64,000 nucleotides of DNA from Chloroflexota bacterium (GTDB lineage Bacteria; Chloroflexota; Dehalococcoidia; DSTF01; RBG-16-68-14), in the NCBI GenBank assembly GCA_029262675.1, contig JAJCYW010000009.1, positions 47,198-111,197 of the forward strand, read 5' to 3'. Below are positions 4,434 through 53,168 of the stretch, one piece after another. Position 1 is the first letter of the stretch; each line of letters opens with the position of its first letter. A program made the translations under genes and the position numbers. The notes under the pieces were generated by a model. It did not search any database, was not told where the DNA came from, and saw only the letters and a program-made list of their open reading frames with translations.

Positions 4434-4464
4434 ACGCACCGATCTCCCTGTTCCGCCCGCGCGA

Positions 4465-26095: not shown

Positions 26096-26149
26096 GAGAA
26101 TGAGCATGCCATCGAACGTCAGTAGCACTATGGAGGACAGGTACTAGTC

Positions 26150-27172: not shown

Positions 27173-27287
27173 CGAGATCGGACGGCCAGCGGTCGTTCAA
27201 CTGCAAACAGGCGCGAGAGAACGGAATGGCACGGGATGCCCGTGGAATCAGGCCAAGGACGGCCGGACTGATGAACGGAGGAGAGAC

Positions 27288-33941: not shown

Positions 33942-34203
33942 ATCCGTTCCTCCGGGTGAATCATAGCGGCCATGAAGCGTTGCTAATTGGCCGGCGTCGC
34001 ATCGCTGAAACCTAGATCCGAACGCGGGACGCGGTTGGTTGCCGAAGCTTACTTGGCGCCGTATTGGGGCGTCAAGCTGAAAAGCGAATTGCGGCACGGT
34101 GTGGCATACTGGGCCTGAGCCGGTATTGTGCTTGGCATTCACGGGCAACGTGGCCCCGGGCCGGGCTGCTCGTATCATCTAAAGAAGGCTCAACGGAGGC
34201 ATC

Positions 34204-36563: not shown

Positions 36564-37328
36564 TCAGCTGCTGGCTTGCAGACTGCTGATCGGCGCGAGT
36601 TCCACTGCCTCAACCGAGACGCTGCTGCCTCCGAGCGAGAGCAGCAGAATGTGGCCGGGCTGGTCGGGGAAATCGAGCGCCAGCGGGACGCCCGGATAGC
36701 CATAGCGCGGCTGGTCCTGGGGAGTGAGGGTCATCGTGTGATAGTGGCCGACCAACGCGAAATCGACGCCTGAGCGTTCCACGTCGTCTTCGGTGAAGGG
36801 ACAGTGAAGAATGCCTCGAGGTGGTGCGGCATCCATATCCCAGCCGTGGAACAGCGCGATGTTTGTGCCATCTGGGCTGACGCGAAGCCGCCGCAGAGCG
36901 TTTTCCTGGAGCTCGGGCCGGTCATGCCCGATCCCCCAGATCTTGACGTCCGGCGCGAGGCTCACCGATCTCCATTGCGTGTCGCGAAAGATCTCTACGT
37001 TGGTTGGCCACGCCGTTCGTTTATAGAGGCTACCGGCGACGTGCGGATCGTGGTTGCCGGGAGCGAGCAGCACGGGTCTCGACCCCAGCCGGTTGAACTG
37101 CGCCGCGATGAAGTCGCCGGTCTCCGCGGTGGCGTGCTCGTGGTCATAGAGATCGCCGCCGACCGTGAGCGCATCGACGGAAAGGTTCAGCGCCAGGTCG
37201 ACGATGCGCTGCAGAGCGTTGGTACGAGAATCGAAGTCCGATGCACGGCCTCCATCCTCTCCTGAAGGGCCGGCCCAGCCTGGAGGGCCCGCAATGTGCA
37301 GGTCGGCGAAGTGCAGAATCTTCAGCAT
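36564..37328 (-). CDS. metallophosphoesterase (calcineurin-like phosphoesterase)
   Basis: Motifs ILHFADLH, GGDLYD, GNHD and GHYH. Confidence 0.7.
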   Translation of the reverse strand: MLKILHFADLHIAGPPGWAGPSGEDGGRASDFDSRTNALQRIVDLALNLSVDALTVGGDLYDHEHATAETGDFIAAQFNRLGSRPVLLAPGNHDPHVAGSLYKRTAWPTNVEIFRDTQWRSVSLAPDVKIWGIGHDRPELQENALRRLRVSPDGTNIALFHGWDMDAAPPRGILHCPFTEDDVERSGVDFALVGHYHTMTLTPQDQPRYGYPGVPLALDFPDQPGHILLLSLGGSSVSVEAVELAPISSLQASS

Positions 37329-37467: not shown

Positions 37468-38688
37468 ATGAGGAACGTCGCGATAGTCGGCGCCGGAATG
37501 ACGCGTTTCGCGAAGTATCAGGATCGCGGGCTCAAGGAGTTGACGAACGAAGCCGTTAGTGCAGCTCTTGAGTCCGCCGGAGTCGACAAGTCAGGATTTG
37601 AGGTCGCGGTCGTGGGCAACGCCGCCGCCGGGGTGATCACAGGACAGGAGTGCGTCCGCGCGCAGGTCGTTCTGCGCGAGATGGGGATCGACAAGATCCC
37701 GATGGTCAACACGGAGAACGCCTGCGCCAGCTCGTCGACTGCGTTCCAAGTCGCTTGGCTGTATGTCGCGTCCGGCCTCTACGATGTGGCGCTTGCTGTC
37801 GGCGTGGAGAAGATGTTCGTCGATGACAAGCTGAAGACGATGGCGGCCTTCAGCGGCGCTGTCGATGTCGAGCAAATTCGCGAACTCATGAGCAGCCTCA
37901 AGCCGCCTTCGGAGAAGAAGGCTGGCACGGAGAGCGGCGCAGGTACCAAGCGCAGCCTCTTTATGGACATCTATGGCGCCGTCGCGCGTTCCCATATGGA
38001 GCGCTACGGCACGACGAAGGAGCACTACGCGCGCATCGCGGTGAAGAACCACAACAACGGCAGCCTTAACCCGCACGCGCAATACCAGGAGCGCTACACG
38101 CTCGAGGAGATCCTGGCGTCGCCGGCCGTGTCCGAGCCGCTGACGCGTCTCATGTGCTCGCCCATCGGTGATGGTGCGGCTGCCGCGGTCCTGATGAGCG
38201 AGGAGAAGGCCAAACAGTTCACCACCGATCCCGTAATGGTTCGCGGCTCGGCGATCGTATCCGGCGCCGACGACCGTGGGGAGGTCGGCGGCGAAACGGG
38301 TCGCGCGGCACAGCGAGCGTTTGAGATGGCGGGGATGACGCCACGGGACGTCAACGTGATGGAGGTCCATGACGCCACGGCTCCGTCGGAGTTGTTCATC
38401 TATGAGGAGCTGGGTCTCTGTGAAGAGGGTGAGGGAGGCCGGCTGATCGAAGAGGGCGTGACCGAAATCGGCGGGCGTTTGCCTGTCAACACCAGTGGCG
38501 GGTTGCTGGCCAAGGGCCACCCGATCGGAGCGACTGGCATCGCCCAGATCTACGAGATCTGGTTGCAACTTCACGGCAAGGCCGGTGACCGCCAGGTAGC
38601 TGGCGCGAAGGTCGGCTTGACGGAGAACGGCGGTGGAATGATACGCGGCGAGGCCGCCGCGACGGCGGTTCACATTCTGGCCAAGTAA
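37468..38688 (+). CDS. thiolase-family protein of the SCP-x / lipid-transfer-protein type
   Basis: VAIVGAGMTRFAKY N-terminus and NTSGGLLAKGHPIGATG C-terminal motif, typical of SCP2-thiolase-like enzymes rather than biosynthetic thiolases. GGAGGG RBS. Confidence 0.75.
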   Translation: MRNVAIVGAGMTRFAKYQDRGLKELTNEAVSAALESAGVDKSGFEVAVVGNAAAGVITGQECVRAQVVLREMGIDKIPMVNTENACASSSTAFQVAWLYVASGLYDVALAVGVEKMFVDDKLKTMAAFSGAVDVEQIRELMSSLKPPSEKKAGTESGAGTKRSLFMDIYGAVARSHMERYGTTKEHYARIAVKNHNNGSLNPHAQYQERYTLEEILASPAVSEPLTRLMCSPIGDGAAAAVLMSEEKAKQFTTDPVMVRGSAIVSGADDRGEVGGETGRAAQRAFEMAGMTPRDVNVMEVHDATAPSELFIYEELGLCEEGEGGRLIEEGVTEIGGRLPVNTSGGLLAKGHPIGATGIAQIYEIWLQLHGKAGDRQVAGAKVGLTENGGGMIRGEAAATAVHILAK

Positions 38689-38731
38689 CACGGGCCAAGT
38701 AACATCTGCCCAGCGAACAGAGGAGGTTCCA

Positions 38732-39565
38732 ATGGAAGTCATGCAGGTTCTCGGTAACCGGCGGAGCATCCGCTACTATCTGCCACATCGGCCGGTGGAG
38801 CGTGAGAAGGTACAGAAGATGCTGGAGGCCGCCCGGCGTGCTTCTTGCGTGGGGAATGTCACCGTCGCCAGGGCGATCGTCATCTGGAAAGACCAGGCAT
38901 CTGAAGAGGTGATCAAAGCGATCACCCCGCCCCTTGGCTATCAGCAGATGAACACCGCACCCTGCTTCATCCTGTTCTACCACGACAAGCTGTCTTACGA
39001 AGGCAACAAGTGGATCGACGACCTGAAGAACCTAGCAACACAAAGGCGTATCGGCGAAGACCTCGAGCAGACGCACGAGCTCATTGAGAAGTCGCTGCGC
39101 CCGGCGTTTGGCGCCGCCTGGGAGCAGATGGCTGTCGCCCCTCTCGCGTTCATGGACGTCGGTCAGGTTGTAGCGCAAGCCACCTTCGCGGCCTGGGACG
39201 AGGGTCTGGGCACGTGCCTGATGAGCAGTCCGCGTATCGAGCAGATCGGAGGTCTGCTCAATCTGCCGGAGACAGCCATTCCGGTCTGTCTGATGTCGGT
39301 CGGCTACCCAGCGGAGTCCTGGGAAGCGGGCGGCCAGACGAGCCGGCCGCCGCTAGAGGACATCTTCTTTGAGATGGAGTACGGCAAGCCGTTCAAGTCG
39401 GACCCGGCGGTCGTGGAGGAGTTGAAGAAGGACGGCCTGATCCAGACGCCGGCGCCGCTGCCCTGGCGCGAGGCTGAGCTGCAGTACATTGCGCACGCTC
39501 TTAACATGGAGTTCCAGCTCGCGATGCCAGGCGCTCCCCCGGCAAGCGGGGACGGTAAGGAGTGA
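38732..39565 (+). CDS. nitroreductase-family flavoprotein with C-terminal extension; paralog of 283..1071
   Basis: VLGNRRSIRYYLP...KVQKMLEAARRAS. Colinear with the 283 gene, including SVGYPAESW/LVGYPAESP and the extended tail. Confidence 0.7.
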   Translation: MEVMQVLGNRRSIRYYLPHRPVEREKVQKMLEAARRASCVGNVTVARAIVIWKDQASEEVIKAITPPLGYQQMNTAPCFILFYHDKLSYEGNKWIDDLKNLATQRRIGEDLEQTHELIEKSLRPAFGAAWEQMAVAPLAFMDVGQVVAQATFAAWDEGLGTCLMSSPRIEQIGGLLNLPETAIPVCLMSVGYPAESWEAGGQTSRPPLEDIFFEMEYGKPFKSDPAVVEELKKDGLIQTPAPLPWREAELQYIAHALNMEFQLAMPGAPPASGDGKE

Positions 39566-40533
39566 CCGTCGTCGCGGAGGGCACGGGAGCCTTCTTGGCG
39601 CCTGACCCGGACGCCCACCGGCGCTATATCCGCGACCACAAGGAAAAGGGCCTCGTCTCCAAGGTGATGTCCGAGCACGAAGCCATCGAGCGCTTCGTCG
39701 AGGACGGCGACTATGTCGCGTACGACTGCAACCTCTGGGTGCGCGGGCCGGCGGCCCTCATGCGCGAGATCATCCGCCAGAAGAAGCGGGAGTTGTGGAT
39801 CGCGGCCAAGTTCACGGCCCACGACGCGACGATGCTCGTCGCGGCCGGATGCGTGAACCGCATCGACGTTGGCTGGATGGAAGTGGGCCGGGTGATCACG
39901 GAGGCCCAGCTAGAAGGCCGCGTGGAGCTCCACGAATGGAGCAACGGCGCGATGACCTATAGACTGCTTGCTGGCTCCTTGGGCCTGCCGTTTCTGCCGT
40001 TGCGTTACCTGGGCGGTACCGACGTGTTCAATACATCCGGCACAAAGCTGATCGATGACCCGTACAGCGGAAAGCCGATCTGCGTAGTTCCCGCTCTTAA
40101 CCCCGACGTCGGGCTCGTGCACGTCAACCAGTGCGACGAATTCGGTAACGCACGTGTCTTCGGCGCCGGCATCTCGCCGGTCGAAACGGCGATGGCCGCG
40201 AAGAAGGTGATCCTCTCGACTGAGGAGATCATCGACAGCGACGAGCTCCGCAGGCATCCCCAACAGACGAGGATTCCTTACTACGCGGTGGACGCAGTCG
40301 TCCACGCCCCGTTTGGCGGCTACCCAGGCACCGTGCCGGGGCTCTACAAGGCGGACATAGAGCACTTGATGGAGTCGGGCGCGGCCCAGATGCAAGGCAA
40401 GATGGATGAGTACCTGGAGAAGTGGGTGTTCAGCGTTTCGTCACACGAGGAGATGCTGGGGACGCACGTGGGCCAGGAGAAGCTGGACGTGCTGAAGGCG
40501 GAGGAGACGATCAAAGAAGGCTACTACGAATGA
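39562..40533 (+). CDS. CoA-transferase family I, subunit A (GctA/IpdA-like)
   Basis: GTGA overlap with the upstream gene. Subunit-A-like pattern ...AAKFTAHDATMLVAAGCV.... Confidence 0.7.
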   Translation: MTVVAEGTGAFLAPDPDAHRRYIRDHKEKGLVSKVMSEHEAIERFVEDGDYVAYDCNLWVRGPAALMREIIRQKKRELWIAAKFTAHDATMLVAAGCVNRIDVGWMEVGRVITEAQLEGRVELHEWSNGAMTYRLLAGSLGLPFLPLRYLGGTDVFNTSGTKLIDDPYSGKPICVVPALNPDVGLVHVNQCDEFGNARVFGAGISPVETAMAAKKVILSTEEIIDSDELRRHPQQTRIPYYAVDAVVHAPFGGYPGTVPGLYKADIEHLMESGAAQMQGKMDEYLEKWVFSVSSHEEMLGTHVGQEKLDVLKAEETIKEGYYE

Positions 40534-41393
40534 CAGAAACCCGAACGTTCACGGACATGGAACAGATCATCACGACCAGTTCCCGTCTGATGGACGGCGA
40601 CAAGCTGTATTTCACTGCCATCGGAGGGCCGCCTCTGGTTGCGGTCCTGCTCGCGAAGCGCCTGCGCGCCCCGGAGCTGGCCTACATCGTGGAAGACGGG
40701 ACCATCGCCCCGCAGGTCTCGCTGCCAGCGCCACCGTTTCTGATCGCGGCCAGCGGCGCCAGCTATCGCGCCGCGGCGTGGGCGGACATGAACACCGTCA
40801 GCTTCCATGCCGGCCTGGGCTACATCGACTACGGCGTCCTGGCGGCGGTGCAGGTGGACGAGTATGGCAACTTCAACTCGACCTTCGTCGGTCCGGCGTA
40901 CGAAAGGCCGGCGCGCCGCTTCGGCGGCCCCGGCGGCGCGAACGAGATCGCCTCGCTCTGTTGGCGGACGATCTTGATGACGCGCCAGCAGGGACGCAAG
41001 TTCGTCAAGAAGCTGGATTTCATGTCGTCGCCGGGCTTTCTGGACGGCAGCGCCGGCGCCCGCGAACGGGCCGGCCTCCCTGCGGATACCGGGCCCTGGC
41101 GCGTCGTGACGGAGATGGCCGTGTTCGACTTCGACGAGGAGACGCGGCGTATTCGTCTGAAGGCACTGGCACCTTGGGCGACGGTCGACGACGTGATCGC
41201 CGAGATGGAGTTTGAGCCCATGATCGGTCCTTCGCTGGAGAGCATCGAGGTACCCAGCGAGGAGGAGCTATCCGTGCTTCGGGCAGAAGTTGACACGACG
41301 GGCCGGACCGTGCGAGGCTGCTGGATCACGGTCGAACTCGATGGCGAGAATGCACGCCTCGTGGAGCAGGAGACCTCAGCCGAGGGGGCATAG
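40530..41393 (+). CDS. CoA-transferase family I, subunit B (GctB/IpdB-like)
   Basis: ATGA overlap with subunit A. ...YFTAIGGPPLVAVLLAKRL... and ...GGPGGANEIA..., the subunit-B pattern. Confidence 0.65.
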   Translation: MTETRTFTDMEQIITTSSRLMDGDKLYFTAIGGPPLVAVLLAKRLRAPELAYIVEDGTIAPQVSLPAPPFLIAASGASYRAAAWADMNTVSFHAGLGYIDYGVLAAVQVDEYGNFNSTFVGPAYERPARRFGGPGGANEIASLCWRTILMTRQQGRKFVKKLDFMSSPGFLDGSAGARERAGLPADTGPWRVVTEMAVFDFDEETRRIRLKALAPWATVDDVIAEMEFEPMIGPSLESIEVPSEEELSVLRAEVDTTGRTVRGCWITVELDGENARLVEQETSAEGA

Positions 41394-41463
41394 CACAGTG
41401 GCAGAACAGCCAGTCTATCAGGCCCGCGCAGCGCACGGCCCCGGCCGTCGCCGGGCAAGTCGC

Positions 41464-44322
41464 ATGCCCGTTGGCCGGCTTGGCATCTGTTTACTGATCG
41501 CGTTTCTTGGGCTCTGCCTTGGCTCGGCCGGCGTTCCGCTTGCGGCGGTCCCTCTGGCGGGGGCCGCCGCGACGGAGGGCGACGCGCGACCAAGCGAGTC
41601 TTGGACCGCTTACCCTCAGACCGGAGCGCAGCAGGACACCGAATTCGTCATTGTTCGCCAGCGCAACAAGCGGTTCGACCCGCCGGTGGTAGTGATCCAC
41701 GAAGGCGACACCGTCCTCTGGGTCAACGAGACAGCCGGCGGGTGGCACGACGTCCAGAGCTTCGAAGGCGAGTTCTCGTCCGAGCGGATGGATTTCGGTG
41801 ACACGTTCGTCCGCACGTTCGACGAGGCCGGCGTGTTCGGTTACTACTGTACACCTCATGTCGTCGATGGCATGCAAGGCGCCGTGGTAGTGCTGCCTCA
41901 GGACAGGCCGCTGCCCGATCCGCTGCCGACGCCGGCCCTACCCGCGCCTGACTCGCCGCCCACGCCCGACGTGCAAGCAGAAGACGGCCCGCCAGATGCC
42001 ATCGGTACGGTGGCCGGGGGCGGAGGCAATGGAGGCCTGGCCACGGAAGCCAGCCTCTACCTGCCGGAGGGTGTGGCAGTCGATGACGACGGTGCGGTCT
42101 ATGTATCAGACACAGAGAACTGCCAGGTGCGCCGAATCGATCCTGGAGGCAGGGCGGTTGGCGTATTGGGGCATGCGTCCTGCGGGTTCAGCATGGGTGG
42201 AGACGCCGACCTCGGCACCTGGCAACACACGAACTATCCACGGGGTGTGGCGGTCGGGCCGGATGGGCTCCTCTACGTCGCGGATACGATCAACTGCCGC
42301 GTGCGCCGAATCGAGGCGGCGGGGACGGTCATGACAATCGCCGGCCGCGGCTCGTGCCGGGCGAGCGGCGACGGCGGCCCCGCCGTCCATGCCGGCCTCT
42401 CGCCGTGGGGGCTGGGTTGGGACGAGCAGGGGAACCTGTACATCGCGGACGTATTCAACTGTCGCATCCGCAGGCTGGACAGCGAGGGCACGATCACGAC
42501 CGTGGCGGGCAATGGCGACTGCGGCTTCTCCGGCGACGGCGGCACGGCGACGGCAGCGAGCCTGTTCTTCCCTCGGGACGTGGCCGTCGGGCGAGACGGT
42601 GCGATCTTCATCGCGGACGCGGAGAACTGTCGCGTGAGGCGAATCGACCCGGCCACCGGCGTTATTGAGACCGTGGCCGGAGCGACCGTGGCCGGAGGTG
42701 AGTCCTGCGACGACGGTGGTGATGGCGAGGCGGCCGAAGCGGCCAGTCTCCAGCCATGGGCGCTCGCCGCTGAGCCGGGTGGCGCTGTGCTGGTGGCGGA
42801 CCGGGCCCACTGCCGCGTTCGCCGCTTCGTCCCCGGCGGCATCATCGAGACGGTCGCCGGAACCGGCCGCTGCGGCTACTCAGGCGACGGCGGCGACGCG
42901 ATCGACGCGGCGCTGCGCCAGCCATCGGACATCGCACTCGCGCCTGACGGCGTTCTCTACGTCGCCGATACAGGGAACTGCCGTATCCGGCGAATAGAGA
43001 CGAGCGGCACGATCACCACCATAGCCGGCGGCGGGGCCTGCGCGCCCGGAGGTGACGGCGGCTGGGCCGTTAGCGCCAGCGCTTGGCATCCCATGGGGCT
43101 GGCGATGGGCGAAGGCGGCGAATGGTACTTTTCCGAACTGGATACCTGCCGGGTGCGGCGTGTGGACGCCAACGGCATCATCTCGACGTATGCGGGCAAC
43201 GGGCTCTGTGGCTACGCCGGCGACGGCGGAGCCGCCGTCGACGCGAGGCTCAGCGACATGCTGGGCGGGCTGGCGTTGGCCGAAGACGGGACGCTCTACA
43301 TCGCTGAGGGCTACAACTGCCGCGTGCGAAGTGTCACTACCCGCGGGCTGATACATACTGTTGCCGGCAACGGCAGGTGCGAGTTCTCCGGCGACGGCGG
43401 TCCGGCGCGGGAGGCCGCCCTCAATTTCGTCGCCGATGTAGAGCCGGACGGAAGCGGAGGCCTCCTGATAGCGGAGCCGTTCAACTGTCGCGTGCGACGG
43501 GTCGACCTAGCGACTGGCATCATCGACACGGTTGTTGGTGACGGCTCATGTCATTTCAATGGGGAGGGCGTCCCGGCCGGGCAGGCTGGCGTGGAGCCGT
43601 GGGCAGTGGCCGCGGGCCCGGATGGCTCGATCTTCTTGGCCGACTCGGGTAACTGCCGGGTCAGGAGCGTCAACGCGGATGGGCTGATCGCCACGGTGGC
43701 AGGCGGAGATGAATGCGGCATTGGTGGCGACGGCGGACCCGCGCTCCAGGCACAGTTCTTGTTGCCCTACGATCTCGCACTGGATCAGGCCGGCAACCTC
43801 TACGTCGCGGATCTACGGGCGTTCACCGTGCGGAAGGTGGATGCGCAGGGTGTCATCAGCACGGTCGCTGGTATCGGCATCTCCCGCCCAATCGATATCG
43901 GCGGCTATGATCCACTGAACGGGCTGCTCTGCTCGATCCACGCCCTTCCGGTGCCGGTACCCTCGTATCTGGGCGACGGTGGTCCCGCGAAAGAGGCCGG
44001 GCTCTACTTCCCATACGGGATCGCGCTGGATACCGAAGGGCATCTCTATATTGCCGATACGTTTGACCATCGAGTGCGTCGCGTGGCCTGCGGTGGCGTC
44101 GTGCCCTGCGCGGATTCCGCGGCGTTGGTCGATACGCCAAGCGACGCGTCAGACGATGAGACGCCGCCCGTGGCGCTGCCGGAGACTGGGCAGGCCGCCC
44201 AGCAGCCGTATGGCGGGGTCTCGCTGGCCGGTCTGGCTGCCTTGCTTAGCGCTTCGCTGGTGCTGTTGGCGGCCCTGGTGGGCCTCCGCAGGCGGGGGGC
44301 CAGTCGAAAACGGCCGTACTAG
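41464..44322 (+). CDS. cell-wall-anchored protein: signal peptide, type-1-copper cupredoxin domain, 12 NHL repeats (two 6-bladed propellers), LPETG sortase signal
   Basis: MPVGRLGICLLIAFLGLCLGSAG (signal). Cupredoxin ligands H...C-x2-H-x4-M (GGWHDV ... YYCTPHVVDGM). Twelve repeats of (Y/F)(V/I)AD..NC(R/Q)(V/I)RR(I/V)D. C-terminal LPETG, then a hydrophobic stretch, then RRRGASRKRPY. Confidence 0.75.
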   Translation: MPVGRLGICLLIAFLGLCLGSAGVPLAAVPLAGAAATEGDARPSESWTAYPQTGAQQDTEFVIVRQRNKRFDPPVVVIHEGDTVLWVNETAGGWHDVQSFEGEFSSERMDFGDTFVRTFDEAGVFGYYCTPHVVDGMQGAVVVLPQDRPLPDPLPTPALPAPDSPPTPDVQAEDGPPDAIGTVAGGGGNGGLATEASLYLPEGVAVDDDGAVYVSDTENCQVRRIDPGGRAVGVLGHASCGFSMGGDADLGTWQHTNYPRGVAVGPDGLLYVADTINCRVRRIEAAGTVMTIAGRGSCRASGDGGPAVHAGLSPWGLGWDEQGNLYIADVFNCRIRRLDSEGTITTVAGNGDCGFSGDGGTATAASLFFPRDVAVGRDGAIFIADAENCRVRRIDPATGVIETVAGATVAGGESCDDGGDGEAAEAASLQPWALAAEPGGAVLVADRAHCRVRRFVPGGIIETVAGTGRCGYSGDGGDAIDAALRQPSDIALAPDGVLYVADTGNCRIRRIETSGTITTIAGGGACAPGGDGGWAVSASAWHPMGLAMGEGGEWYFSELDTCRVRRVDANGIISTYAGNGLCGYAGDGGAAVDARLSDMLGGLALAEDGTLYIAEGYNCRVRSVTTRGLIHTVAGNGRCEFSGDGGPAREAALNFVADVEPDGSGGLLIAEPFNCRVRRVDLATGIIDTVVGDGSCHFNGEGVPAGQAGVEPWAVAAGPDGSIFLADSGNCRVRSVNADGLIATVAGGDECGIGGDGGPALQAQFLLPYDLALDQAGNLYVADLRAFTVRKVDAQGVISTVAGIGISRPIDIGGYDPLNGLLCSIHALPVPVPSYLGDGGPAKEAGLYFPYGIALDTEGHLYIADTFDHRVRRVACGGVVPCADSAALVDTPSDASDDETPPVALPETGQAAQQPYGGVSLAGLAALLSASLVLLAALVGLRRRGASRKRPY

Positions 44323-45515
44323 AGCTCCTCGGCCGCTCTGAGAGAGACCACCTCGTTCGTTCCGTCCATGATCTGTAGGAGCTTGGCGTCGCGATAGAAT
44401 TTCTCGACCGGGTTCTCCTTGGAGATGCCGTAGCCTCCGAACACCTGGATCATATCGGCCGTTACCTGCATCGCCATGTCGCTCGCGAAGGTGCGGGCCG
44501 CCATGGCGGTCGGGAGGTGAGGCTTGCCCGTGCTCAGCAGCCACGAGGACTTCCAGAGCAGGGCGCGTGCGGCTTCGATTTGGCGGAAGGCGTTGAAGAG
44601 CGTCATCTTGACCACCTGGTGGTCGAAGATTACGGTGTCTCCCTGTACGCGTTCCTTCGCGTAGGCGAGTGCCTCTTCGTAGGCCGCGCGAGCTACGCCC
44701 ACGGCCAGCGTGCCAACGGCGGTGTTCCCGCCGGTGACAATGCGCTCGATCAGCATCTTGTAGGCGGGCCCGCCGGGCATGACGAGAAACTCCGCCGGGA
44801 TCCTGACGTCGTCGAAGAAGACCTCGCCCTGGTTGAGCGTCCGGAGGCCGAGCTTGTTCAGCGGCTTGCCGCGCGACATGCCCGGCAGATCGCCAGGGAT
44901 AGCGAAGGTCGCTGTGCTCTCCATGCCGTCGCCGTTTCCCACGTGGACCATGAGAAGGAAGGCGTCGGCCATCCAGCCGTTGCTCACGAACGCCGACTTC
45001 TGGCCGTTCACGACGTAGTCGTCGCCGTCTCTCACGGCGTTCGCCTCCATATGAATGGAGGGCTGGCCGAACTGGAAGAGGTCGGACCCGTGCTGCGGCT
45101 CGGTGATCGCCCACGCTCCTCCGTGCTCGCCCTTCGTGTCGTTCACGAACGCGTCTAGGTACTCGGCATAGAACGGGTGTCTGTCCTTGGCCGCCGCCGC
45201 GCTGCCCGCGATCATGGGAGCGACCAGCAGATGGCTGGCAAATCCGGCATCGCCCACCGCCAGCTCTTCCTGCACGATCGTGCTCGTCATGGCAGGCGCT
45301 CCCAGACCTCCGATATCGCGACCAAGCATCATTTTGTGGAAGCCAATCTCGTATGCTCGGGATAGTACGCGCCGCATGGTGTCGCTAGTGTAGGCTGCTT
45401 CGGGGTCCTGCATCAGATCGAGCTCCGCCGCTGCTGGGCGCAACTCCTTTTGCGCGAACTCACGTGTCATGTCGCGGATTTTCTCAATTTCCTCGGGTAG
45501 GGCGAAATCTACCAC
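44319..45515 (-). CDS. acyl-CoA dehydrogenase
   Basis: ACAD-like N-terminal (F.LPEE....R...REFA..E), middle and C-terminal domains with ...YRDAKLLQI..GTNEV. Confidence 0.85.
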   Translation of the reverse strand: MVDFALPEEIEKIRDMTREFAQKELRPAAAELDLMQDPEAAYTSDTMRRVLSRAYEIGFHKMMLGRDIGGLGAPAMTSTIVQEELAVGDAGFASHLLVAPMIAGSAAAAKDRHPFYAEYLDAFVNDTKGEHGGAWAITEPQHGSDLFQFGQPSIHMEANAVRDGDDYVVNGQKSAFVSNGWMADAFLLMVHVGNGDGMESTATFAIPGDLPGMSRGKPLNKLGLRTLNQGEVFFDDVRIPAEFLVMPGGPAYKMLIERIVTGGNTAVGTLAVGVARAAYEEALAYAKERVQGDTVIFDHQVVKMTLFNAFRQIEAARALLWKSSWLLSTGKPHLPTAMAARTFASDMAMQVTADMIQVFGGYGISKENPVEKFYRDAKLLQIMDGTNEVVSLRAAEEL

Positions 45516-45919
45516 TCTGACCTCCTTGGATGAGAACAGGGTCGTCTGTGAGAACTGGGTTGTTAGAATGCAGCCTACGCTTGCTATCGAATGCGTCCTA
45601 GGGCCAGGATGCCTTCATTTTGAAGGTCATATGGCCCGTCCCCAGCTTGGCCAGCGATGAAAGATAGCCTCGACCGCGGCGGATCAAGTCGACCCAGCGC
45701 CATGACGCTTGCTATCCTGAAATCAGACGGCCCCAGTAGCTACGTTGAATATGGAGTGATCTCCTGGAACGCGATGAGCTTCTGGGCCAAGATGGCCCTC
45801 GTCTTTGCGCGAGGGCCATCTGGACGCCGTATTCAACGTAGCTGGCTCTCTACCGCACCATTCGAGAGTAGCCTGCGCTGCCAGGAGAACGATTGAGTTT
45901 ACAAGGAGGCAATTAGGAA

Positions 45920-46543
45920 ATGAACGGGAAACGAGTATACTTCGGTGCCGCTGGGGCGTTGTCTTTTCTGCTGATATTGGTGTTGTTCGCCGCTGCCTGC
46001 GGCGGCGGTGACGAAGAGGCGGATCCGACGGCTACGGCGCCAGCAGGAGGGGATCCGACTGCCACGAAAACCACACTGGGCGAGCCGACAGACCCGCCTG
46101 CGGATCCGACAGACCCGCCTGCGGATCCGACAGACGCGCCCGCGGAGCCGACAGATGTGCCTGCGGACCCGACAGTTGTGCCTACGGTGCCAGTGATTTC
46201 GGATACGACGGTCGATGTGACGTTGACGGAGTTCGTTCTCGATCCGTCCGCCAACGCGGCGCCTGCTGGAATCGTTAGGTTCAACGTGAGCAGCGACGGT
46301 GCAATTTTCCACAACCTCAAGGTTATTGAGACGGACCTCGCTCCCAACGCACTGCCGACCGACGATACCATATTCTCGGTGGACGAGGAGCAAGTGGACG
46401 TCGTTGCCACTACGGCAGACCTTAATCCCGGCGAGCAGGAAACGCTCAGCGTCGAATTGGCTGCCGGCAGCTACGTGCTCATCTGCAACGTTCCAGGGGG
46501 ACATTACCAAGGGGGTATGACGGCAGCATTCACCGTCGAATAG
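45920..46543 (+). CDS. cupredoxin-domain lipoprotein with Pro/Asp/Thr tandem repeats
   Basis: Lipobox LFAAACGGG. Repeats PTDPPADPTDPPADPTDAPAEPTDVPADPT encoded by 24-bp tandem DNA repeats (~46078-46170). Type-1 copper ligands FHN ... C-x5-H-x4-M (LICNVPGGHYQGGM). Confidence 0.65.
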   Translation: MNGKRVYFGAAGALSFLLILVLFAAACGGGDEEADPTATAPAGGDPTATKTTLGEPTDPPADPTDPPADPTDAPAEPTDVPADPTVVPTVPVISDTTVDVTLTEFVLDPSANAAPAGIVRFNVSSDGAIFHNLKVIETDLAPNALPTDDTIFSVDEEQVDVVATTADLNPGEQETLSVELAAGSYVLICNVPGGHYQGGMTAAFTVE

Positions 46544-46615
46544 GCAAAACAGGATTCTAGGTGAAGACGGCCGGGGCTTGTGCCCCGGCCGTCTCGCTAT
46601 GTGCGCGGAACGGGC

Positions 46616-46845
46616 CTATCGGCCGACCAAGTTCAAGGTGGGGTAGAAGAAGACCCAGACGACATTGACGAAGTGCCAGTAGTAGATCGTGCCTCCACTC
46701 TCCAGTGCTCTTCTGCTGAGAAGTGGCCTCGAAGTCCGAGCCGGTGGAGCAAGCCGAGCATGACGATGCCGCTCACGACGTGTGAGGCGTGCCAGTGAGC
46801 ACGCCGTTTGCGGCCGGGCGTAGGGGCCGGATGGCCTGCCTGCAT
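46616..46845 (-). pseudogene. remnant of a cytochrome c oxidase subunit III gene (C-terminal ~60 aa, frameshifted)
   Basis: One frame gives ...HASHVVSGIVMLGLLHRLGLRGHFSAEEH (cf. COX3 HGLHVIIGTIFL...HF). An overlapping frame gives ...GGTIYYWHFVNVVWVFFYPTLNLVGR* (cf. COX3 C-terminus AAWYWHFVDVVWLFLY). No upstream COX3 sequence remains. Confidence 0.4.
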
Positions 46846-46897
46846 AGGCCGAACGGCCTAAGACGTATCGAATGGCGCTAGCTACAGTAAGCATGCG

Positions 46898-47143
46898 ATG
46901 GAGAAGTTACGAGTTCCGGTGACGCTGGCCACTACGGCCTGCGGGACGATGCTCGCGCGGACGCTGGCCCCGCACCCGGTCTATGCCGGCGACGAGAGTC
47001 GGGACCGGGTGCTGGGTGGCGCGGGCACCGGCGTCCTGCTGTTTGCGCTGGTTCTGCTCGCGGCAGTCGGCGCGTTCGCCGCGGGTATCCTCTGGCGGGA
47101 GCGTCAGGACGGGGATACGCCTGACAGCGAACAGCTATACTAG
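46898..47143 (+). CDS. possible small single-TM protein upstream of the GMC oxidoreductase (speculative)
   Basis: 81-aa ORF with one hydrophobic helix (VLLFALVLLAAVGAFAAGILW). No recognisable homology. Confidence 0.2.
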   Translation: MEKLRVPVTLATTACGTMLARTLAPHPVYAGDESRDRVLGGAGTGVLLFALVLLAAVGAFAAGILWRERQDGDTPDSEQLY

Positions 47144-47174
47144 TTCGGCCCGACCGGCTAGAGGGAGGCGGAAC

Positions 47175-48689
47175 ATGCATTACGATGTCATCGTCGTCGG
47201 CGCCGGAGCGTCCGGGGCGGTTACAGCCGCCCGCGTCTCGGAAGACGCGGCGCGCTCGGTGCTGCTGCTGGATGCCGGCCCGTACTATCGAACCGCATCG
47301 CAGACGCCCGCCGACCTGCTGAACGGCAACGACAACTCCTATTTCGCCCATGATTGGGGATACGAGGTAACGGCGAACGTCGCCGGTCGGGTCGTGCCGC
47401 TGCCGGCCGGGCGCGTCGTCGGCGGTTCTTCCGCCGTGAACACGGCCATCGCCCTGAGGGGGACGCCTGAGGACTACGATGGCTGGGCAGCGCTCGGCAA
47501 CGACGAGTGGTCATGGGATAAGGTGCTGCCGTATTTCCGCCGCCTGGAGCACGATCTCGATTTCGACGACGATAACCACGGCCAAGACGGGCCTATCCCC
47601 GTGCGCCGTCATACAGAGGACGAGCTGGTGCCCGTGCAGGCGGCCTTCGTCCGGGCTATGCGGGCGCTTGGCTACGCGGAAACGTCCGACAACAACGATC
47701 CGCAGTCGACGGGGCTCGGCTTTCATCCGATGAACAAGCTGGACGGCCGCAGGATGAGCGTCGCCATCTGCTACCTAGAGCCGGCGCGAAAGCGGCCAAA
47801 TCTCACCATCATGGGAGACTGCCACGTCCGGCGGATCGTCTTCGACGGCGATCAGGCGACAGGCCTTGAAGTGGAGGGCGACGCCGGCATGGAGACGATT
47901 ACGGGCGATCGCATCGTGATCTCCTGCGGCGCCATTGGTACGCCTGCGCTTCTCATGCGCTCCGGCATCGGGCCTGCGGACCACCTGCGCGAACTCGACA
48001 TTGACGTGGTGCGGGACCTGCCGGGTGTTGGTGACAACCTGGACGACCATCCGATGCTCGGCGCGACGTTCATTGCCAAGGAGGGGATGCTAGAGAGATC
48101 CGACCCTGTTGTGCAGGTCACGTATCGATACACGTCGAGCGATGACGAAGAGCGAAACGACATGCAACTCATGCCGGTTTCCCAGATCCCAACGCGCTCA
48201 GGCGGCTTCGTCTACGCAATCGGAAGCGTCATCTACCTCCAGAAGTCTAGAGGGCGGCTCACGCTGACGTCGGCGGACCCCCGCATCCCACCGCACGTCG
48301 ACGAGCGCTTCCTCGAAGCTGACGAGGACGTCCGGCGCCTGGTGGAAGGCCTGCGCATGGCATTGGACGTGGGCTCTCATCCAGCGTTCGATGAGCTGTC
48401 AGAAGGCCTGAGATTTCCCGACGCGGCGGTCGTGCTGGATGACGATGCGCTGGCGGAGTGGTGCAAGAGGGTTGCGTCGAGCGGCTTCCATCCGAGCTGC
48501 ACGGCGATGATGGCGCCCGCGGACGATCCCATGGGGGTTGTCGACCAGCACCTGCGAGTGCGCGGGATCGATGGTCTGCTCGTGGCCGATGCCTCGGTGA
48601 TGCCAAGGTGCCCGCGAGCCAATATCCACCTCACGTCCGTGATGATCGGTGAACGCGCCGGCGAGTGGCTGCGCGAGGGTGTCGTCTAG
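47175..48689 (+). CDS. GMC-family FAD oxidoreductase (choline dehydrogenase / cholesterol oxidase superfamily)
   Basis: Start at MHYDVIVVGAGASG with a GAGGGAGG RBS. GMC N-terminal ADP-binding fold, internal ...GGSSAVN..., and the C-terminal His/Asn active-site region. Confidence 0.8.
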   Translation: MHYDVIVVGAGASGAVTAARVSEDAARSVLLLDAGPYYRTASQTPADLLNGNDNSYFAHDWGYEVTANVAGRVVPLPAGRVVGGSSAVNTAIALRGTPEDYDGWAALGNDEWSWDKVLPYFRRLEHDLDFDDDNHGQDGPIPVRRHTEDELVPVQAAFVRAMRALGYAETSDNNDPQSTGLGFHPMNKLDGRRMSVAICYLEPARKRPNLTIMGDCHVRRIVFDGDQATGLEVEGDAGMETITGDRIVISCGAIGTPALLMRSGIGPADHLRELDIDVVRDLPGVGDNLDDHPMLGATFIAKEGMLERSDPVVQVTYRYTSSDDEERNDMQLMPVSQIPTRSGGFVYAIGSVIYLQKSRGRLTLTSADPRIPPHVDERFLEADEDVRRLVEGLRMALDVGSHPAFDELSEGLRFPDAAVVLDDDALAEWCKRVASSGFHPSCTAMMAPADDPMGVVDQHLRVRGIDGLLVADASVMPRCPRANIHLTSVMIGERAGEWLREGVV

Positions 48690-48970: not shown

Positions 48971-50557
48971 TTGAGCGATGCCACATTCGACGCAGTCATT
49001 ATCGGGGCAGGCCACAACGGGCTTTCGTTAGGTACCTACCTATCGAAGTGTGGCTGGGATGTCGCGATATTCGAGAAGCGCACTGAAGAGGGCGGCGGCC
49101 TCTGTACGGAAGAGCTGACGCGCCCCGGGTTTCTTCACAACGTTCACTGCAACTACCACACGCTGGTCGGCGTCTGTCCCGTCTATGACGATTTGGACCT
49201 GTACGATCATGGCCTGAAGTACGTCCAGCCGGAAGTGCAGATGGGGAGCGTCTTCCGTGACGGCACGGCGCTGACCGTACATACGGACATCGACAAGACG
49301 TGCGCGTCGTTTGCGCGTTTCTCGGAGAAGGACGCTGAGACGTTCCGCCGGCTGCACGATGAGGTGAAGGGCTACCTGGACCTGATCCTGAGTACGCTGA
49401 TGTACTCGCCGCCCATCCCGTTGCTCGATATTACGAAGGCGCTTGTCGTCTGGAAAATCACCGACAAGGCGGAGTTCCTGAGCGTCCATCTGCGCAACAT
49501 GACGATCAACGAGTTCCTGGACGAGCACTTCGAGAGCGACAAGATCAAGGCGATGCTTGCTTTCCAGGCAGCCATTTCCGGCTACGCGACGGACCTAAGA
49601 GGGCTCGCCGTGTCGTTCCCGCTCTTGGTTGGCAAAATGGATAATTGGCACGTCTGCGTCGGCGGTTCTCATCAACTCGCGCACTCGCTCTGGGAGGCGT
49701 TCGCGCATGCGGGCGGGAGCGTCTTCCTGAACACGCCGGTTGCAGGCATCGTGACGGACAACGGCAAGGCGACCGGCGTTCGCCTCTACGACGGCAGCGA
49801 GGTGAAGGCCCGGCACGCCGTCATCAGCACGATCGACGTGGAGCAGACGTTCCTGAAGATGTTGCCGCGCGAGAAGCTGGACCCGGAGCTCGTGAAGCAT
49901 GTGGAAGACGTCTCGCACATCGATTGGTCATATTACAGCGTTCACCTGGCCATGAGCGAAGCTCCTCAGTACGAGGCGGCATCATTCGACCCGGACATCC
50001 AGAATGCTTGGGTACTCAATGCCGGCTATGAGTCGCTGGATGACCTGAGTCAGGACTGGAAGACCGTCCGCGCGGGCAAGCTGGCCGATCCCAAGCCGAA
50101 CTGCGCCGTGAACTCGCTGTTCGATCCGACGGACTCGCCCGATGGCTCGTTTACGGGCCTGATGCGCCAGTTCGCCCCGATCGAGATCGGGAGCGGCGGT
50201 ATGGAGGCGTGGGACGAGATGGCTGGCCCATACGGAGAGCGCCTCATCGACGCGTGGACGTCGTACGCTCCGAACGTGAGAGGCGCGACGATCGAATGGC
50301 AGTCATACACGCCTCTGGACATCTCGCGCCGGATGGTGAACATGGTCCGCGGCGACTGGATGGGCGGCGTCATCGCGCTCGACAACCTGCTGACGGAGCG
50401 GCCAACTCCGGAGCTATCGCAGTACAAGACGCCGTTCGAGGGCCTGTACATGGCTGGGGCCACGCAGCATCCGCACGGATTCATCACGTTCGCGCCGGGC
50501 TACAACGCGCTGCAGGTAATCGCAGAAGATCACGGATTGGAGCGCTGGTGGCAATGA
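48971..50557 (+). CDS. FAD/NAD(P)-dependent oxidoreductase of the phytoene-desaturase (CrtI-like) family, copy 1
   Basis: TTG start with a GAGGGGG RBS. FDAVIIGAGHNGLSLGTYLSKCG (Rossmann GxGxxG) and ...EKRTEEGGGLCTEEL. About 528 aa. Confidence 0.7.
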   Translation: MSDATFDAVIIGAGHNGLSLGTYLSKCGWDVAIFEKRTEEGGGLCTEELTRPGFLHNVHCNYHTLVGVCPVYDDLDLYDHGLKYVQPEVQMGSVFRDGTALTVHTDIDKTCASFARFSEKDAETFRRLHDEVKGYLDLILSTLMYSPPIPLLDITKALVVWKITDKAEFLSVHLRNMTINEFLDEHFESDKIKAMLAFQAAISGYATDLRGLAVSFPLLVGKMDNWHVCVGGSHQLAHSLWEAFAHAGGSVFLNTPVAGIVTDNGKATGVRLYDGSEVKARHAVISTIDVEQTFLKMLPREKLDPELVKHVEDVSHIDWSYYSVHLAMSEAPQYEAASFDPDIQNAWVLNAGYESLDDLSQDWKTVRAGKLADPKPNCAVNSLFDPTDSPDGSFTGLMRQFAPIEIGSGGMEAWDEMAGPYGERLIDAWTSYAPNVRGATIEWQSYTPLDISRRMVNMVRGDWMGGVIALDNLLTERPTPELSQYKTPFEGLYMAGATQHPHGFITFAPGYNALQVIAEDHGLERWWQ

Positions 50558-51081
50558 CGGGCTCTGTTTCGACAAACGGGACCGTGCCGATTCGGGCGGT
50601 GGCAGGCGACGAAGCCAGTGGGCTGGCCAACATCATTACGCAGTACCTGGAACAGCTCTTGGGCGACTCGGCGGAGAAGCGCGCCGCGGCGTCGTCGCTG
50701 CGGGGCCGTCTTGGCATGAACGCGCGCGAGAGCGACGTGGCGGTGACGATCGTGTTCGCGGACGGCGCCATCGAAATCGAAGAAGGCCTGCAGGAGCCGG
50801 ACGCCGTGATCGGCGGCGAATTGGAATTCCTAATGCACATGATGGCGGGCCGGGCTAACCCGGCGTGGGAGATGCTGAACCGGAAGATGACGATCCGGCC
50901 AGGACGGCGGCCGCTCTTCGCATACCAGGCCTACAGCCTGATGCGGCTGCCGGGCGTACATGTGTGGAACGGGGTGCCGAGGCCGCCCACAGGCGTTCTG
51001 GTGGGCGCGGCGGCCGCGCTGGTGATTGGACTATCGATCATGTACGCCCGACGCAGGGCACCAGGAGGTGACGATGCCTGA
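50554..51081 (+). CDS. SCP2 (sterol-carrier-protein-2)-like lipid-binding protein with C-terminal TM helix
   Basis: ATGA overlap with the upstream gene. ...VAVTIVFADGAIEIEEG...DAVIGGELEFLMHMMAGRANPAWEMLNRKMTIRPGR is SCP2-like. C-terminal GVLVGAAAALVIGLSIMYA helix. Confidence 0.5.
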   Translation: MTGSVSTNGTVPIRAVAGDEASGLANIITQYLEQLLGDSAEKRAAASSLRGRLGMNARESDVAVTIVFADGAIEIEEGLQEPDAVIGGELEFLMHMMAGRANPAWEMLNRKMTIRPGRRPLFAYQAYSLMRLPGVHVWNGVPRPPTGVLVGAAAALVIGLSIMYARRRAPGGDDA

Positions 51082-52697: not shown

Positions 52698-53168
52698 ATG
52701 GCCGAGATCTACACCACCGCCTGGTACGACAGCATGAAGGATCTCCTCAACAAGAGCGATGAGGTCACGAAGAACGCACCGCAGGGTGTCTGGCGCATCC
52801 TGGCGGAGATTCGCGGCGATGGCACATCACCCTACATCGGCGGCGATGATGTCAAACGCTTCTCGATAGTGCTCGACGATGGCAAATGCGCGAGCTACCA
52901 GGAGCTGACAGAGGCGCCGCCGCGGAAGGACTTCGAATTCATCCTGGAGATGCCCGCCGGCCTCTTCGAGCGTATCGTCGCCAACCAGGCAGATCCGCTT
53001 GAGGCCGGGCTAAAGGGTGACGTGAAGATCGTCGGCGACATGCGGGTGCTGATCCAGAACGCGGAGCTAGTGAACGTCCTCTCTGAGATCTACCAGCGCG
53101 AGATCGAAACGGAGTGGCCTAACGGTACCCCTCCGTACGAGGCAGCGACTGCTGGAGGTGCGGCATGA
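52698..53168 (+). CDS. SCP2-domain protein
   Basis: AAGGAG RBS. ...FSIVLDDGKCASYQELTE...FEFILEMPAGLFERIVANQADPLEAGLKGDVKIVGDMRVLIQNAELVNVL is an SCP2 fold signature. Confidence 0.55.
   Translation: MAEIYTTAWYDSMKDLLNKSDEVTKNAPQGVWRILAEIRGDGTSPYIGGDDVKRFSIVLDDGKCASYQELTEAPPRKDFEFILEMPAGLFERIVANQADPLEAGLKGDVKIVGDMRVLIQNAELVNVLSEIYQREIETEWPNGTPPYEAATAGGAA

Follow-up and report, generated by a model that had tools for sequence, protein, structure and literature searches.

Which compound is broken down by a set of beta-oxidation-like genes that lies just upstream of a molybdenum (Mo) hydroxylase operon in an uncultured Chloroflexi/Dehalococcoidia-related bacterium? The genes occupy positions 37468-48689 of a 64-kb window (the whole stretch of DNA that was analysed), and an earlier note on the same DNA had seen in them a set for the catabolism of a steroid or similar lipid, side chain and rings alike. 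To our knowledge, nearly all that is understood of how sterols and other isoprenoid lipids are degraded without oxygen comes from a single proteobacterial model, Sterolibacterium. The reading favoured here, with a probability of roughly 0.55, is that the genes encode the coenzyme A (CoA)-activation and beta-oxidation ("lower") part of a pathway that degrades a branched and very hydrophobic alkyl chain without oxygen; this chain would most likely be the isoprenoid side chain of a lipid resembling a sterol. The value of the span lies in its link to the neighbouring operon.

Linkage of the gene set to the molybdenum hydroxylase operon

The span starts exactly with a thiolase gene and ends exactly with the stop codon of a GMC oxidoreductase gene, and all five enzyme families that the earlier note had named are present in it (Pfam, NCBIfam). 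The genes that matter for the linkage are the following:

37468-38688, plus strand: SCP-x/archaeal-type thiolase, 406 amino acids (Pfam Thiolase_N, Thiolase_C_1)
38732-39565, plus strand: nitroreductase-superfamily flavin mononucleotide (FMN) protein, 277 amino acids, with an RRSIR motif (PF00881, 1e-17)
39562-40533, plus strand: CoA-transferase alpha subunit of GctA type, 323 amino acids (PF01144; PDB 1POI_A)
40530-41393, plus strand: CoA-transferase beta subunit of GctB type, 287 amino acids, catalytic Glu55 in YIVEDG (PF01144; PDB 1POI_B)
44319-45515, minus strand: acyl-CoA dehydrogenase (ACAD), 398 amino acids, convergent with an NHL-repeat gene (all four ACAD Pfam domains)

Three of these genes, the nitroreductase-like one and the CoA-transferase pair, are coupled in translation, with stop/start overlaps of 4 nt from the nitroreductase-like gene into alpha and from alpha into beta; the SCP-x-type thiolase gene precedes the trio and the ACAD gene accompanies it. 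Ribosome-binding sites of GGAGG type stand before most genes of the window set. The span comprises at least four transcription units because two genes for exported copper proteins, missed by the earlier note, lie within it and the ACAD gene is on the minus strand. "Gene set" is thus the apt term for the span, and "operon" is not.

To see which of these genes travel together, 80 species-representative loci were drawn from a genome scan with an alignment of the nitroreductase-like protein, and their flanks were searched by tblastn with the window proteins (individual related loci are numbered L001 onwards); 68 loci (746 kb) anchored on distant flavoprotein homologues served as controls. The CoA-transferase pair directly follows the nitroreductase-like gene in 39 of the 80 loci. 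The flanks also hold genes for ACAD (45 loci), thiolase (40), an alpha subunit of the EBDH family of Mo hydroxylases (26), DUF35 (18), ECH and SDR (10 each), and GMC and NHL proteins (2 each). Where the nitroreductase-like and CoA-transferase genes occur together, an EBDH/S25DH-family alpha subunit is encoded within 10 kb in 18 of 39 loci (46%), as against 0 of the 68 controls. The core is therefore the nitroreductase-like gene with the CoA-transferase pair, joined by thiolase and ACAD. That this core accompanies Mo hydroxylases is a genuine association, and the co-location goes beyond chance.

These figures bear on the view that the genes are coincidental neighbours serving generic short-chain acyl-CoA and alcohol metabolism of glutaconate, glutarate or ketone-body type. 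Such a view draws on the best characterised homologues, which are glutaconate CoA-transferase, butyryl-CoA dehydrogenase, an archaeal acetoacetyl-CoA thiolase and choline/alcohol oxidases, on the 41 of 80 nitroreductase-anchored loci without a CoA-transferase and the 54 of 80 without a Mo alpha subunit in the flank, and on the unrelated genes that interrupt the span. It is nevertheless improbable, since the enrichment over the controls stands against it, the association outlives rearrangement in RBG_16_68_14 and in other metagenome-assembled genomes (MAGs), and DUF35/SCP-x-type thiolases are typical of branched substrates.

The rearrangement can be followed among the closest relatives, the MAGs SZUA-185, B85T3L11/B45T1L10 and RBG_16_68_14. 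The loci L001, L002 and L017 keep the gene order of the window with the GMC gene inverted. RBG_16_68_14 has the thiolase, nitroreductase-like and CoA-transferase genes immediately beside the downstream operon and in divergent orientation to it, with neither an NHL nor a GMC gene in between, and the thiolase orthologue (80% identical) adjoins that operon. All three contexts found with the nitroreductase-like protein alone contained EBDH-family Mo subunits. Chloroflexi/Dehalococcoidia MAGs are the source of almost all homologues of the Mo alpha subunit and the nitroreductase-like protein, and a look-up of the exact alpha1 sequence in public assemblies gave no match.

The downstream genes, flavoprotein pair, two SCP2 proteins and Mo hydroxylase subunits, are laid out as one long operon just behind the gene set:

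48971-50557, plus strand: flavoprotein 1, CtmA/delta-24-desaturase-like ("CrtO-like"), motif PGFLHNVHC
50548-51081, plus strand: membrane-anchored SCP2 protein with a C-terminal membrane helix (SCP2 Pfam)
51074-52687, plus strand: paralogous flavoprotein 2 ("CrtO-like"), motif PGFHHNLHA
52698-53168, plus strand: soluble SCP2 protein (SCP2 Pfam)
53165-55945, plus strand: Mo subunit alpha1 (Pfam/NCBIfam; EbdA 2IVF, 585 bits)
55962-56612, plus strand: heme-b gamma subunit, EB_dh (Pfam/NCBIfam)
56631-57683, plus strand: FeS beta subunit, Fer4_11 (Pfam/NCBIfam)
57680-58357, plus strand: NarJ-like delta (Pfam/NCBIfam)
58357-59481, plus strand: MobB-FmdE protein (Pfam/NCBIfam)
59499-62330, plus strand: Mo subunit alpha2, EbdA-like (EbdA 2IVF, 748 bits)
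from about 62554 to 64000, plus strand: Mo subunit alpha3, running off the window (Pfam/NCBIfam)

The two flavoproteins are adjacent COG1233-type paralogues, 33% identical to each other. Both the delta-24 steroid desaturase of S. denitrificans and the limonene dehydrogenase CtmAB are heteromers of two COG1233 paralogues in which each subunit carries covalent FMN on the His of G-F-L/R-X-N/S-T/L-H-A; what the desaturase forms is passed on to the Mo enzyme S26DH2 for hydroxylation (PMC11061730, PMC4109377). The window motifs GFLHNVHC and GFHHNLHA match this consensus (PMC11061730) and each is invariant in all orthologues, while the CrtI-like neighbour in L009 lacks it. Judged by motif and pairing, the window flavoproteins are of CtmAB/delta-24-desaturase type. 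The closest characterised relative of the family is CtmAB, which hydroxylates limonene (PMC4109377), and the S. denitrificans side-chain cluster also includes a phytoene-dehydrogenase-like gene (PMC6678751). A metagenome scan found the order flavoprotein 1, SCP2 with membrane helix, flavoprotein 2, SCP2 conserved, and the Mo gamma, beta and delta genes adjoin this cassette in three short metagenome contigs. The SCP2 proteins themselves score 30.7 and 24.9 bits against the Pfam model.

The Mo hydroxylase has the complete EBDH/S25DH-type subunit set of a type II dimethyl sulfoxide reductase alpha subunit, a Fer4_11 beta subunit, an EB_dh heme-b gamma subunit and a NarJ-like chaperone. Alpha1 is 56% identical to a Tat-bearing protein named steroid C-25 hydroxylase alpha subunit by the Joint Genome Institute (JGI), and alpha2 39%. 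No Tat or Sec signal was found on alpha1, alpha2, beta or gamma; in-frame stops lie just before the starts of alpha1 and alpha2, and there is no RR motif. Alpha3 carries a twin-arginine sequence, TRRRFLQG, followed by a lipobox, LTQLGCSGG. The signal-less Mo hydroxylases are thus probably cytoplasmic, and the signals suggest that one locus encodes a cytoplasmic plus a surface-anchored enzyme form. The characterised S25DH-type relatives are periplasmic (PMC8840923, PMC10100899).

Steroid-type genes appear in the surroundings of related Mo subunits. In Dehalococcoidia DTUCFX13, genes of alpha1 type (61%) and alpha2 type (53%) adjoin a thiolase gene whose product reaches 662 bits in the NCBIfam model "steroid 3-ketoacyl-CoA thiolase" (cutoff 515 bits) and which, by this score, is a FadA5-type steroid thiolase. 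The same locus encodes an Ltp protein (525 bits, cutoff 469) with a DUF35 protein, a MaoC pair, an ACAD pair and a KstD-like flavoprotein. Ecdysteroid-kinase-like/APH kinases adjoin Mo alpha subunits in L009 (1321-3594) and L017 (5065-6300) and recall the phosphotransferase-family 25-hydroxysteroid kinase (PMC8449060). A 374-residue protein without a Pfam match is encoded immediately beside alpha2-type genes in four genomes (among the loci L022, L034 and L039); it and the kinases are candidates for the phosphate lyase and kinase of an ATP-dependent dehydration route.

Taken together, the functional link that the earlier note had proposed between the gene set and the downstream Mo hydroxylase/SCP2 operon is borne out by conserved synteny, by the CtmAB/delta-24-desaturase motif and by steroid-type side-chain genes in the relatives. 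The assignment of this operon to the kind used for oxygen-independent oxidation of sterol or isoprenoid side chains is supported.

Enzymes of the gene set and their neighbours

Taken singly, the enzymes of the span look less steroid-like than the earlier note had supposed: their best relatives are glutaconate CoA-transferase and generic beta-oxidation enzymes, the first half of what that note had itself named as counting against its reading. The second half, a genome without any steroid-pathway orthologue, is made less likely by the neighbouring operon and by the relatives. For the CoA-transferase pair, the best PDB match of the alpha subunit is 1POI_A (9e-32, 113 bits), ahead of AibA (6e-24) and IpdA (2e-15, 60 bits), and that of the beta subunit is 1POI_B (4e-37, 131 bits), with AibB and IpdB at about 1e-11 (IpdB 3e-11, 46 bits). 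IpdAB is defined by the missing beta-subunit catalytic Glu of class I CoA-transferases. The Glu of YIVEDG in the window beta subunit aligns with that of IVESG in GctB and is invariant in 36 of 36 orthologues. By these residues and scores the pair is a real CoA-transferase of the class I glutaconate CoA-transferase subfamily and not IpdAB, because it is glutaconate-type with an intact catalytic Glu.

This leaves very little probability for ring catabolism, in which the pair would open a steroid C/D-ring CoA ester as a hydrolase of IpdAB type, with the GMC protein as a cholesterol oxidase. IpdAB and cholesterol oxidase do share Pfam families with the window proteins, and IpdA and IpdB are among the weaker PDB matches. 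Against this stand the kept Glu, Gct scores two to three times those of Ipd, the place of cholesterol oxidase outside the top 60 GMC matches, and the failure to find the IpdAB partner genes or any other ring gene (ipdC, fadD3, echA20, kshAB, hsa, kstR) in the window. The scanned open reading frames (ORFs) of the window likewise contained none of the marks of an actinobacterial-type cholesterol locus, neither the regulators (KstR/TetR, KstR2) and Mce transporters (including Mce4) that the earlier note had suggested looking for nor ring-degradation genes, so that the ring part of its proposal finds no supporting gene there.

The thiolase was correctly recognised as SCP-x-type, its best PDB match being the type-1 SCP2-thiolase 6HSJ (1e-68), followed by an archaeal thiolase (6ESQ) and BbsB (7PXP); the further label "Ltp-like" does not hold in the sense of an Ltp2-type aldolase. 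Ltp2 (6OK1) is a weak match (4e-31), the nucleophilic Cys (ENACASS) is kept, as is the GHP His, and no DUF35 partner was found in the window by tblastn. The best NCBIfam model is PRK06064 with 347 bits, under its cutoff. In SCP2-thiolases the HDCF motif supplies the acid/base Cys. The window thiolase has VHDAT at this site, and its orthologues read HDA[T/F/S], with HDCF in only 1 of 42.

For the ACAD, the earlier note had thought of a FadE-like enzyme. The steroid ChsE/FadE26-27 type is a heterotetramer encoded by two adjacent genes; the span has one gene, and the enzymes closest to its product are butyryl and short/medium-chain ACADs (best PDB matches 4L1F and 1BUC, butyryl/short-chain), with no steroid ACAD in the top 60 and only 38 bits for IpdE2. 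Its orthologues are 91% identical in L001/L002 and 77% in L012. Asp replaces the canonical catalytic Glu, the window protein reading QIMDGTNEV where ordinary ACADs in the same alignment read YEGT or AEGT. Nitroalkane oxidase likewise has Asp at the catalytic-Glu position. The ACAD type that adjoins the nitroreductase-like gene in related loci (L010-L089) has IEDG at this site.

The nitroreductase-like gene is the signature gene of the module. Its protein has 2300 homologues, almost all from Chloroflexi/Dehalococcoidia MAGs, the closest being those of SZUA-185 (94%), B85T3L11 and B45T1L10 (88% and 87%) and RBG_16_68_14 (81%). An AlphaFold2 model built on a 21-sequence alignment was too poor (pLDDT 57) and was not used. 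A paralogue with 39% identity over its full length lies near the window start, with an SDR gene and a further nitroreductase-family gene nearby (283-1104; 2434-3246, minus strand; 3906-4478, minus strand).

Besides these enzymes, the span contains three genes of narrower distribution:

41464-44322, plus strand: exported cupredoxin and NHL-repeat protein, about 950-1000 amino acids, with an N-terminal signal/anchor (Pfam Copper-bind, NHL, TEN_NHL)
45920-46543, plus strand: small lipoprotein with a linker rich in Pro and Thr and, at the C-terminus, a cupredoxin-like copper site, CNVPGGHYQGGM (from sequence; weak sulfocyanin match)
47175-48689, plus strand: GMC flavoprotein of alcohol/choline oxidase-dehydrogenase type, 504 amino acids (Pfam GMC_oxred_N/C)

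The true start of the GMC gene is 47175 (MHYDVIVVGAG), as the ORF from 46983 adds 64 residues missing in the orthologues. The earlier note had pointed to cholesterol oxidase as a member of this family; the top 60 PDB matches are alcohol, choline, aryl-alcohol and glucose oxidases, with cholesterol oxidase not among them. In NCBIfam the protein reaches 394 bits for MftG (TIGR03970; cutoff 387, hence marginal) and 396 bits for choline dehydrogenase. No mft genes were found in the window; the stretch of L011 from the GMC orthologue to the thiolase gene contains two radical-SAM/SPASM genes. By its relatives the GMC protein is a candidate for terminal-alcohol oxidation, encoded by an accessory, lineage-specific gene.

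The cupredoxin-NHL gene takes up a quarter of the span, and its start is ambiguous (41341-41464). It occurs only in the closest relatives L001, L002, L011 and L017 and is absent from RBG_16_68_14 and from 78 of the 80 nitroreductase-anchored loci; its product probably stands outside the CoA-ester chemistry. The cupredoxin lipoprotein is genome-specific, with no counterpart in L001-L006. The two exported copper proteins are lineage-specific insertions and, together with the GMC gene, accessories of the closest lineage. Exported cupredoxins recur at the cluster edges, in the window as listed and in L011 at 128-991, and at L008 14163-17599 genes for cytochrome b, a Rieske protein and a cytochrome c/cupredoxin are followed by one for an EB_dh-type gamma subunit; such cupredoxins may be extracytoplasmic electron acceptors for an exported form of the Mo enzyme. 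A further copper-related gene lies upstream of the span, encoding a DUF411 (CopG-like copper-binding) lipoprotein at 36090-35525 (minus strand). It is interrupted by an in-frame TGA at 35854-35852, reading ..LYRSPT-TGA-GCCGGY.., at the place of the first Cys in the SPxCGCC motif of DUF411 proteins. A perfect 5-bp hairpin (GGTATCGTGAATACC) lies about 17 nt downstream of this TGA, which could be a selenocysteine codon or mark a pseudogene.

Three genes upstream of the span were considered as members of the system and set aside for want of a counterpart in the related loci. The cytochrome P450 (34204-35379) is generic, CYP107/109-like and not CYP125/142-specific. The other two are a luciferase-like gene (32664-34178) and an APH gene (29359-30366), the latter unrelated to the ecdysteroid-kinase-like kinases beside the relatives' alpha subunits. 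Directly divergent from the thiolase gene lies a calcineurin-like metallophosphoesterase gene (36564-37328, minus strand), which has the same position in SZUA-185 (L017 7748-8692) and is not conserved in RBG_16_68_14. Further upstream, 18739-29351 is filled by very large FG-GAP-repeat proteins (590, 1256 and 733 amino acids, one with a dockerin-like segment) with an ABC exporter and a sulfotransferase interleaved, a block with no apparent relation to the catabolic genes. Positions 12687-13805 (minus strand) encode a DUF2804 protein; its 36%-identical homologue in Dehalococcoidia DTUCFX13 (L006 17307-18320) adjoins the alpha subunits and the KstD-like gene.

The base composition across the window is uniform, with about 63% G+C and no compositional break, and nothing in it marks a horizontally acquired island. 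Rfam and tRNA scans of the window gave no match, hence neither a riboswitch nor an island boundary.

Proposed pathway and its substrate

In the favoured pathway, the SCP2 proteins, one of them membrane-anchored, would pass the lipid to the flavoprotein and the Mo enzymes, which would desaturate the chain end and hydroxylate it with water, in parallel to the delta-24 desaturase and subsequent S26DH2 of Sterolibacterium. The terminal alcohol would then be oxidised to the acid, with the GMC flavoprotein as a local candidate for the alcohol step. The glutaconate-type CoA-transferase, through Glu55 of its beta subunit, could activate this acid without ATP, taking CoA from a short acyl-CoA that a later step sets free. 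Redox chemistry on the acyl-CoA may fall to the Asp-type ACAD and the FMN nitroreductase-like protein, for example alpha,beta-desaturation or the reduction or rearrangement of a dienoyl intermediate, and the SCP-x-type thiolase would finally cleave a 2-methyl-branched 3-oxoacyl-CoA, releasing acetyl- or propionyl-CoA. The hydratase and the 3-hydroxyacyl-CoA dehydrogenase would have to be encoded elsewhere in the genome.

The nature of the chain is a question of its own. The same architecture could act on a non-steroid substrate, such as a monoterpene (limonene, p-cymene), an alkylbenzene, an alkane or an acyclic or archaeal isoprenoid. In that case the acid so produced would go to the CoA-transferase and thiolase, or else a beta-keto acid would, the latter formed by alcohol oxidation to a ketone and carboxylation as in the ethylbenzene/acetophenone route, and a CoA-transferase with a thiolase and without hydratase or dehydrogenase fits this beta-keto-acid route exactly. 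The clear EbdA-likeness of alpha2 points in the same direction, as do the closest relatives, which are hydrothermal and aquifer MAGs from settings where sterols would not obviously be the main lipid. On the other side, neither the window nor the loci examined contain a ketone carboxylase, a benzoyl-CoA pathway or an Mrc-type gene, and two SCP2 carriers argue for a large lipid. Moreover, the richest context, that of DTUCFX13, has both FadA5-type and Ltp-type enzymes, and alpha1 is nearer to the S25dA-labelled protein. A non-steroid substrate is possible, if on the unlikely side. Informally, the sterol-like side chain comes somewhat short of an even chance, and another isoprenoid or hydrocarbon is the less probable of the two.

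Several observations weigh against the sterol-directed pathway and must be set beside it. None of the span enzymes reaches a steroid-specific model, and for none is the best relative a steroid enzyme (NCBIfam, PDB). The comparison with steroid side-chain enzymes ran through the PDB, NCBIfam and the one JGI-named homologue. The alpha subunits near the nitroreductase and CoA-transferase genes are mostly of the EbdA-like alpha2 type and less often of alpha1 type, and the substrate class could therefore differ from sterols. The substrate of CtmAB, the nearest characterised flavoprotein relative, is a monoterpene, and a gene for AtuA (acyclic terpene utilisation) stands at the edge of L009. The pathway is also incomplete in place: the scanned window ORFs include no enoyl-CoA hydratase, 3-hydroxyacyl-CoA dehydrogenase, electron-transfer flavoprotein or aldehyde dehydrogenase, and the window has no DUF35 gene (tblastn), no kinase of the L009/L017 type and no ring-degradation gene. 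Regarding the layout, the ACAD gene runs opposite to the other span enzymes, unrelated exported copper proteins interrupt the span, and the GMC gene is inverted relative to L001/L002/L017, moved to the opposite side of the cluster in L011 and absent elsewhere. Finally, the relatives are MAGs throughout.

If the favoured pathway is true, abundant Chloroflexi of aquifers, soils and hydrothermal sediments hold a differently built version of anaerobic side-chain breakdown, which is cytoplasmic, SCP2-assisted and CoA-transferase-initiated. This would bear on the recycling of recalcitrant membrane lipids and on lipid biomarkers in anoxic sediments. Furthermore, the locus supplies candidates for the partners of CtmAB-like radical flavoenzymes and for product activation without ATP, and dozens of species-level genomes contain the uncharacterised partnership of the nitroreductase-like protein with the CoA-transferase. 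The Mo hydroxylases of Sterolibacterium are of biotechnological interest, for example in the production of 25-hydroxyvitamin D3.

Comparison with known systems

The side-chain pathway of Sterolibacterium denitrificans proceeds through S25DH, a 25-hydroxysteroid kinase, the delta-24 desaturase and S26DH, followed by CoA activation and a modified beta-oxidation. The window shares with it EBDH-family Mo hydroxylases with several alpha paralogues and a shared chaperone, a two-subunit CtmAB-like flavoprotein with the covalent-FMN His motif, and CoA-ester processing as the sequel; its relatives add phosphotransferase-family kinases and FadA5/Ltp-type enzymes. The differences begin with the host, a member of the Chloroflexi in place of the Betaproteobacteria, and with the signal-less alpha1, alpha2, beta and gamma subunits, whereas the Sterolibacterium enzymes are periplasmic. 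In addition, the window combines flavoprotein, SCP2 and Mo genes in one operon, has a nitroreductase-like protein as a core member, and would activate its acid by CoA-transferase rather than by ATP-dependent acyl-CoA synthetases; neither AcmA/AcmB nor ring genes were seen in it.

The CtmAB pathway of Castellaniella defragrans is alike in its two adjacent COG1233 paralogues, about 27-33% identical to each other, and in the O2-free attack on an allylic or isoprenoid carbon that is followed by alcohol and aldehyde oxidation, CoA activation and beta-oxidation-like steps. Unlike that pathway, the window locus lacks the CtmEF ferredoxin system and the Mrc ring-cleavage genes, includes SCP2 carriers and a Mo hydroxylase within the operon, and would attach CoA by a transferase instead of a ligase.

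Among single enzymes, GctAB of Acidaminococcus fermentans (PDB 1POI) is the best solved relative of both CoA-transferase subunits, with similar subunit sizes and the beta catalytic Glu. The window pair differs in standing outside an amino-acid fermentation context, in its translational coupling to the nitroreductase-like protein and in its linkage to thiolase, ACAD and Mo hydroxylases. For the window thiolase, the closest solved enzyme is the eukaryotic SCPx, a peroxisomal SCP2-thiolase for 2-methyl-branched 3-oxoacyl-CoAs derived from pristanic acid and from the side chains of bile acids. The SCP2 domains encoded in the window locus give the appearance of a split thiolase-plus-SCP2, although here the two functions have genes of their own, some 12 kb from each other, and HDAT replaces HDCF.

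The Bbs module of anaerobic toluene degradation offers a parallel as a CoA-transferase-initiated beta-oxidation of a branched acid delivered by an anaerobic hydrocarbon-activating enzyme. The solved relatives of the window thiolase include BbsB, and DUF35-thiolase pairs occur in 18 of the 80 related loci. In contrast to Bbs, the window CoA-transferase belongs to family I and not family III, no hydratase, dehydrogenase or DUF35 gene is present in the window, and the upstream enzyme is a Mo/flavin hydroxylase rather than a glycyl-radical enzyme.

The literature searched contained no paper tying Chloroflexi/Dehalococcoidia to S25DH-type enzymes and none describing a partnership of a nitroreductase-like protein with a CoA-transferase. 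It is a tentative and rather doubtful extension that a widespread Chloroflexi/Dehalococcoidia lineage possesses an undescribed oxygen-independent pathway for sterol, hopanoid or other isoprenoid chains, in which the new module takes the place of the ATP-dependent ligases of Sterolibacterium and of part of canonical beta-oxidation. Compared with all these systems, the component families of the locus are known, and its arrangement and lineage are new: signal-less Mo hydroxylases share an operon with a CtmAB/delta-24-desaturase-type flavoenzyme and with SCP2 carriers, beside a conserved CoA-transferase-initiated lower module with a nitroreductase-fold member.

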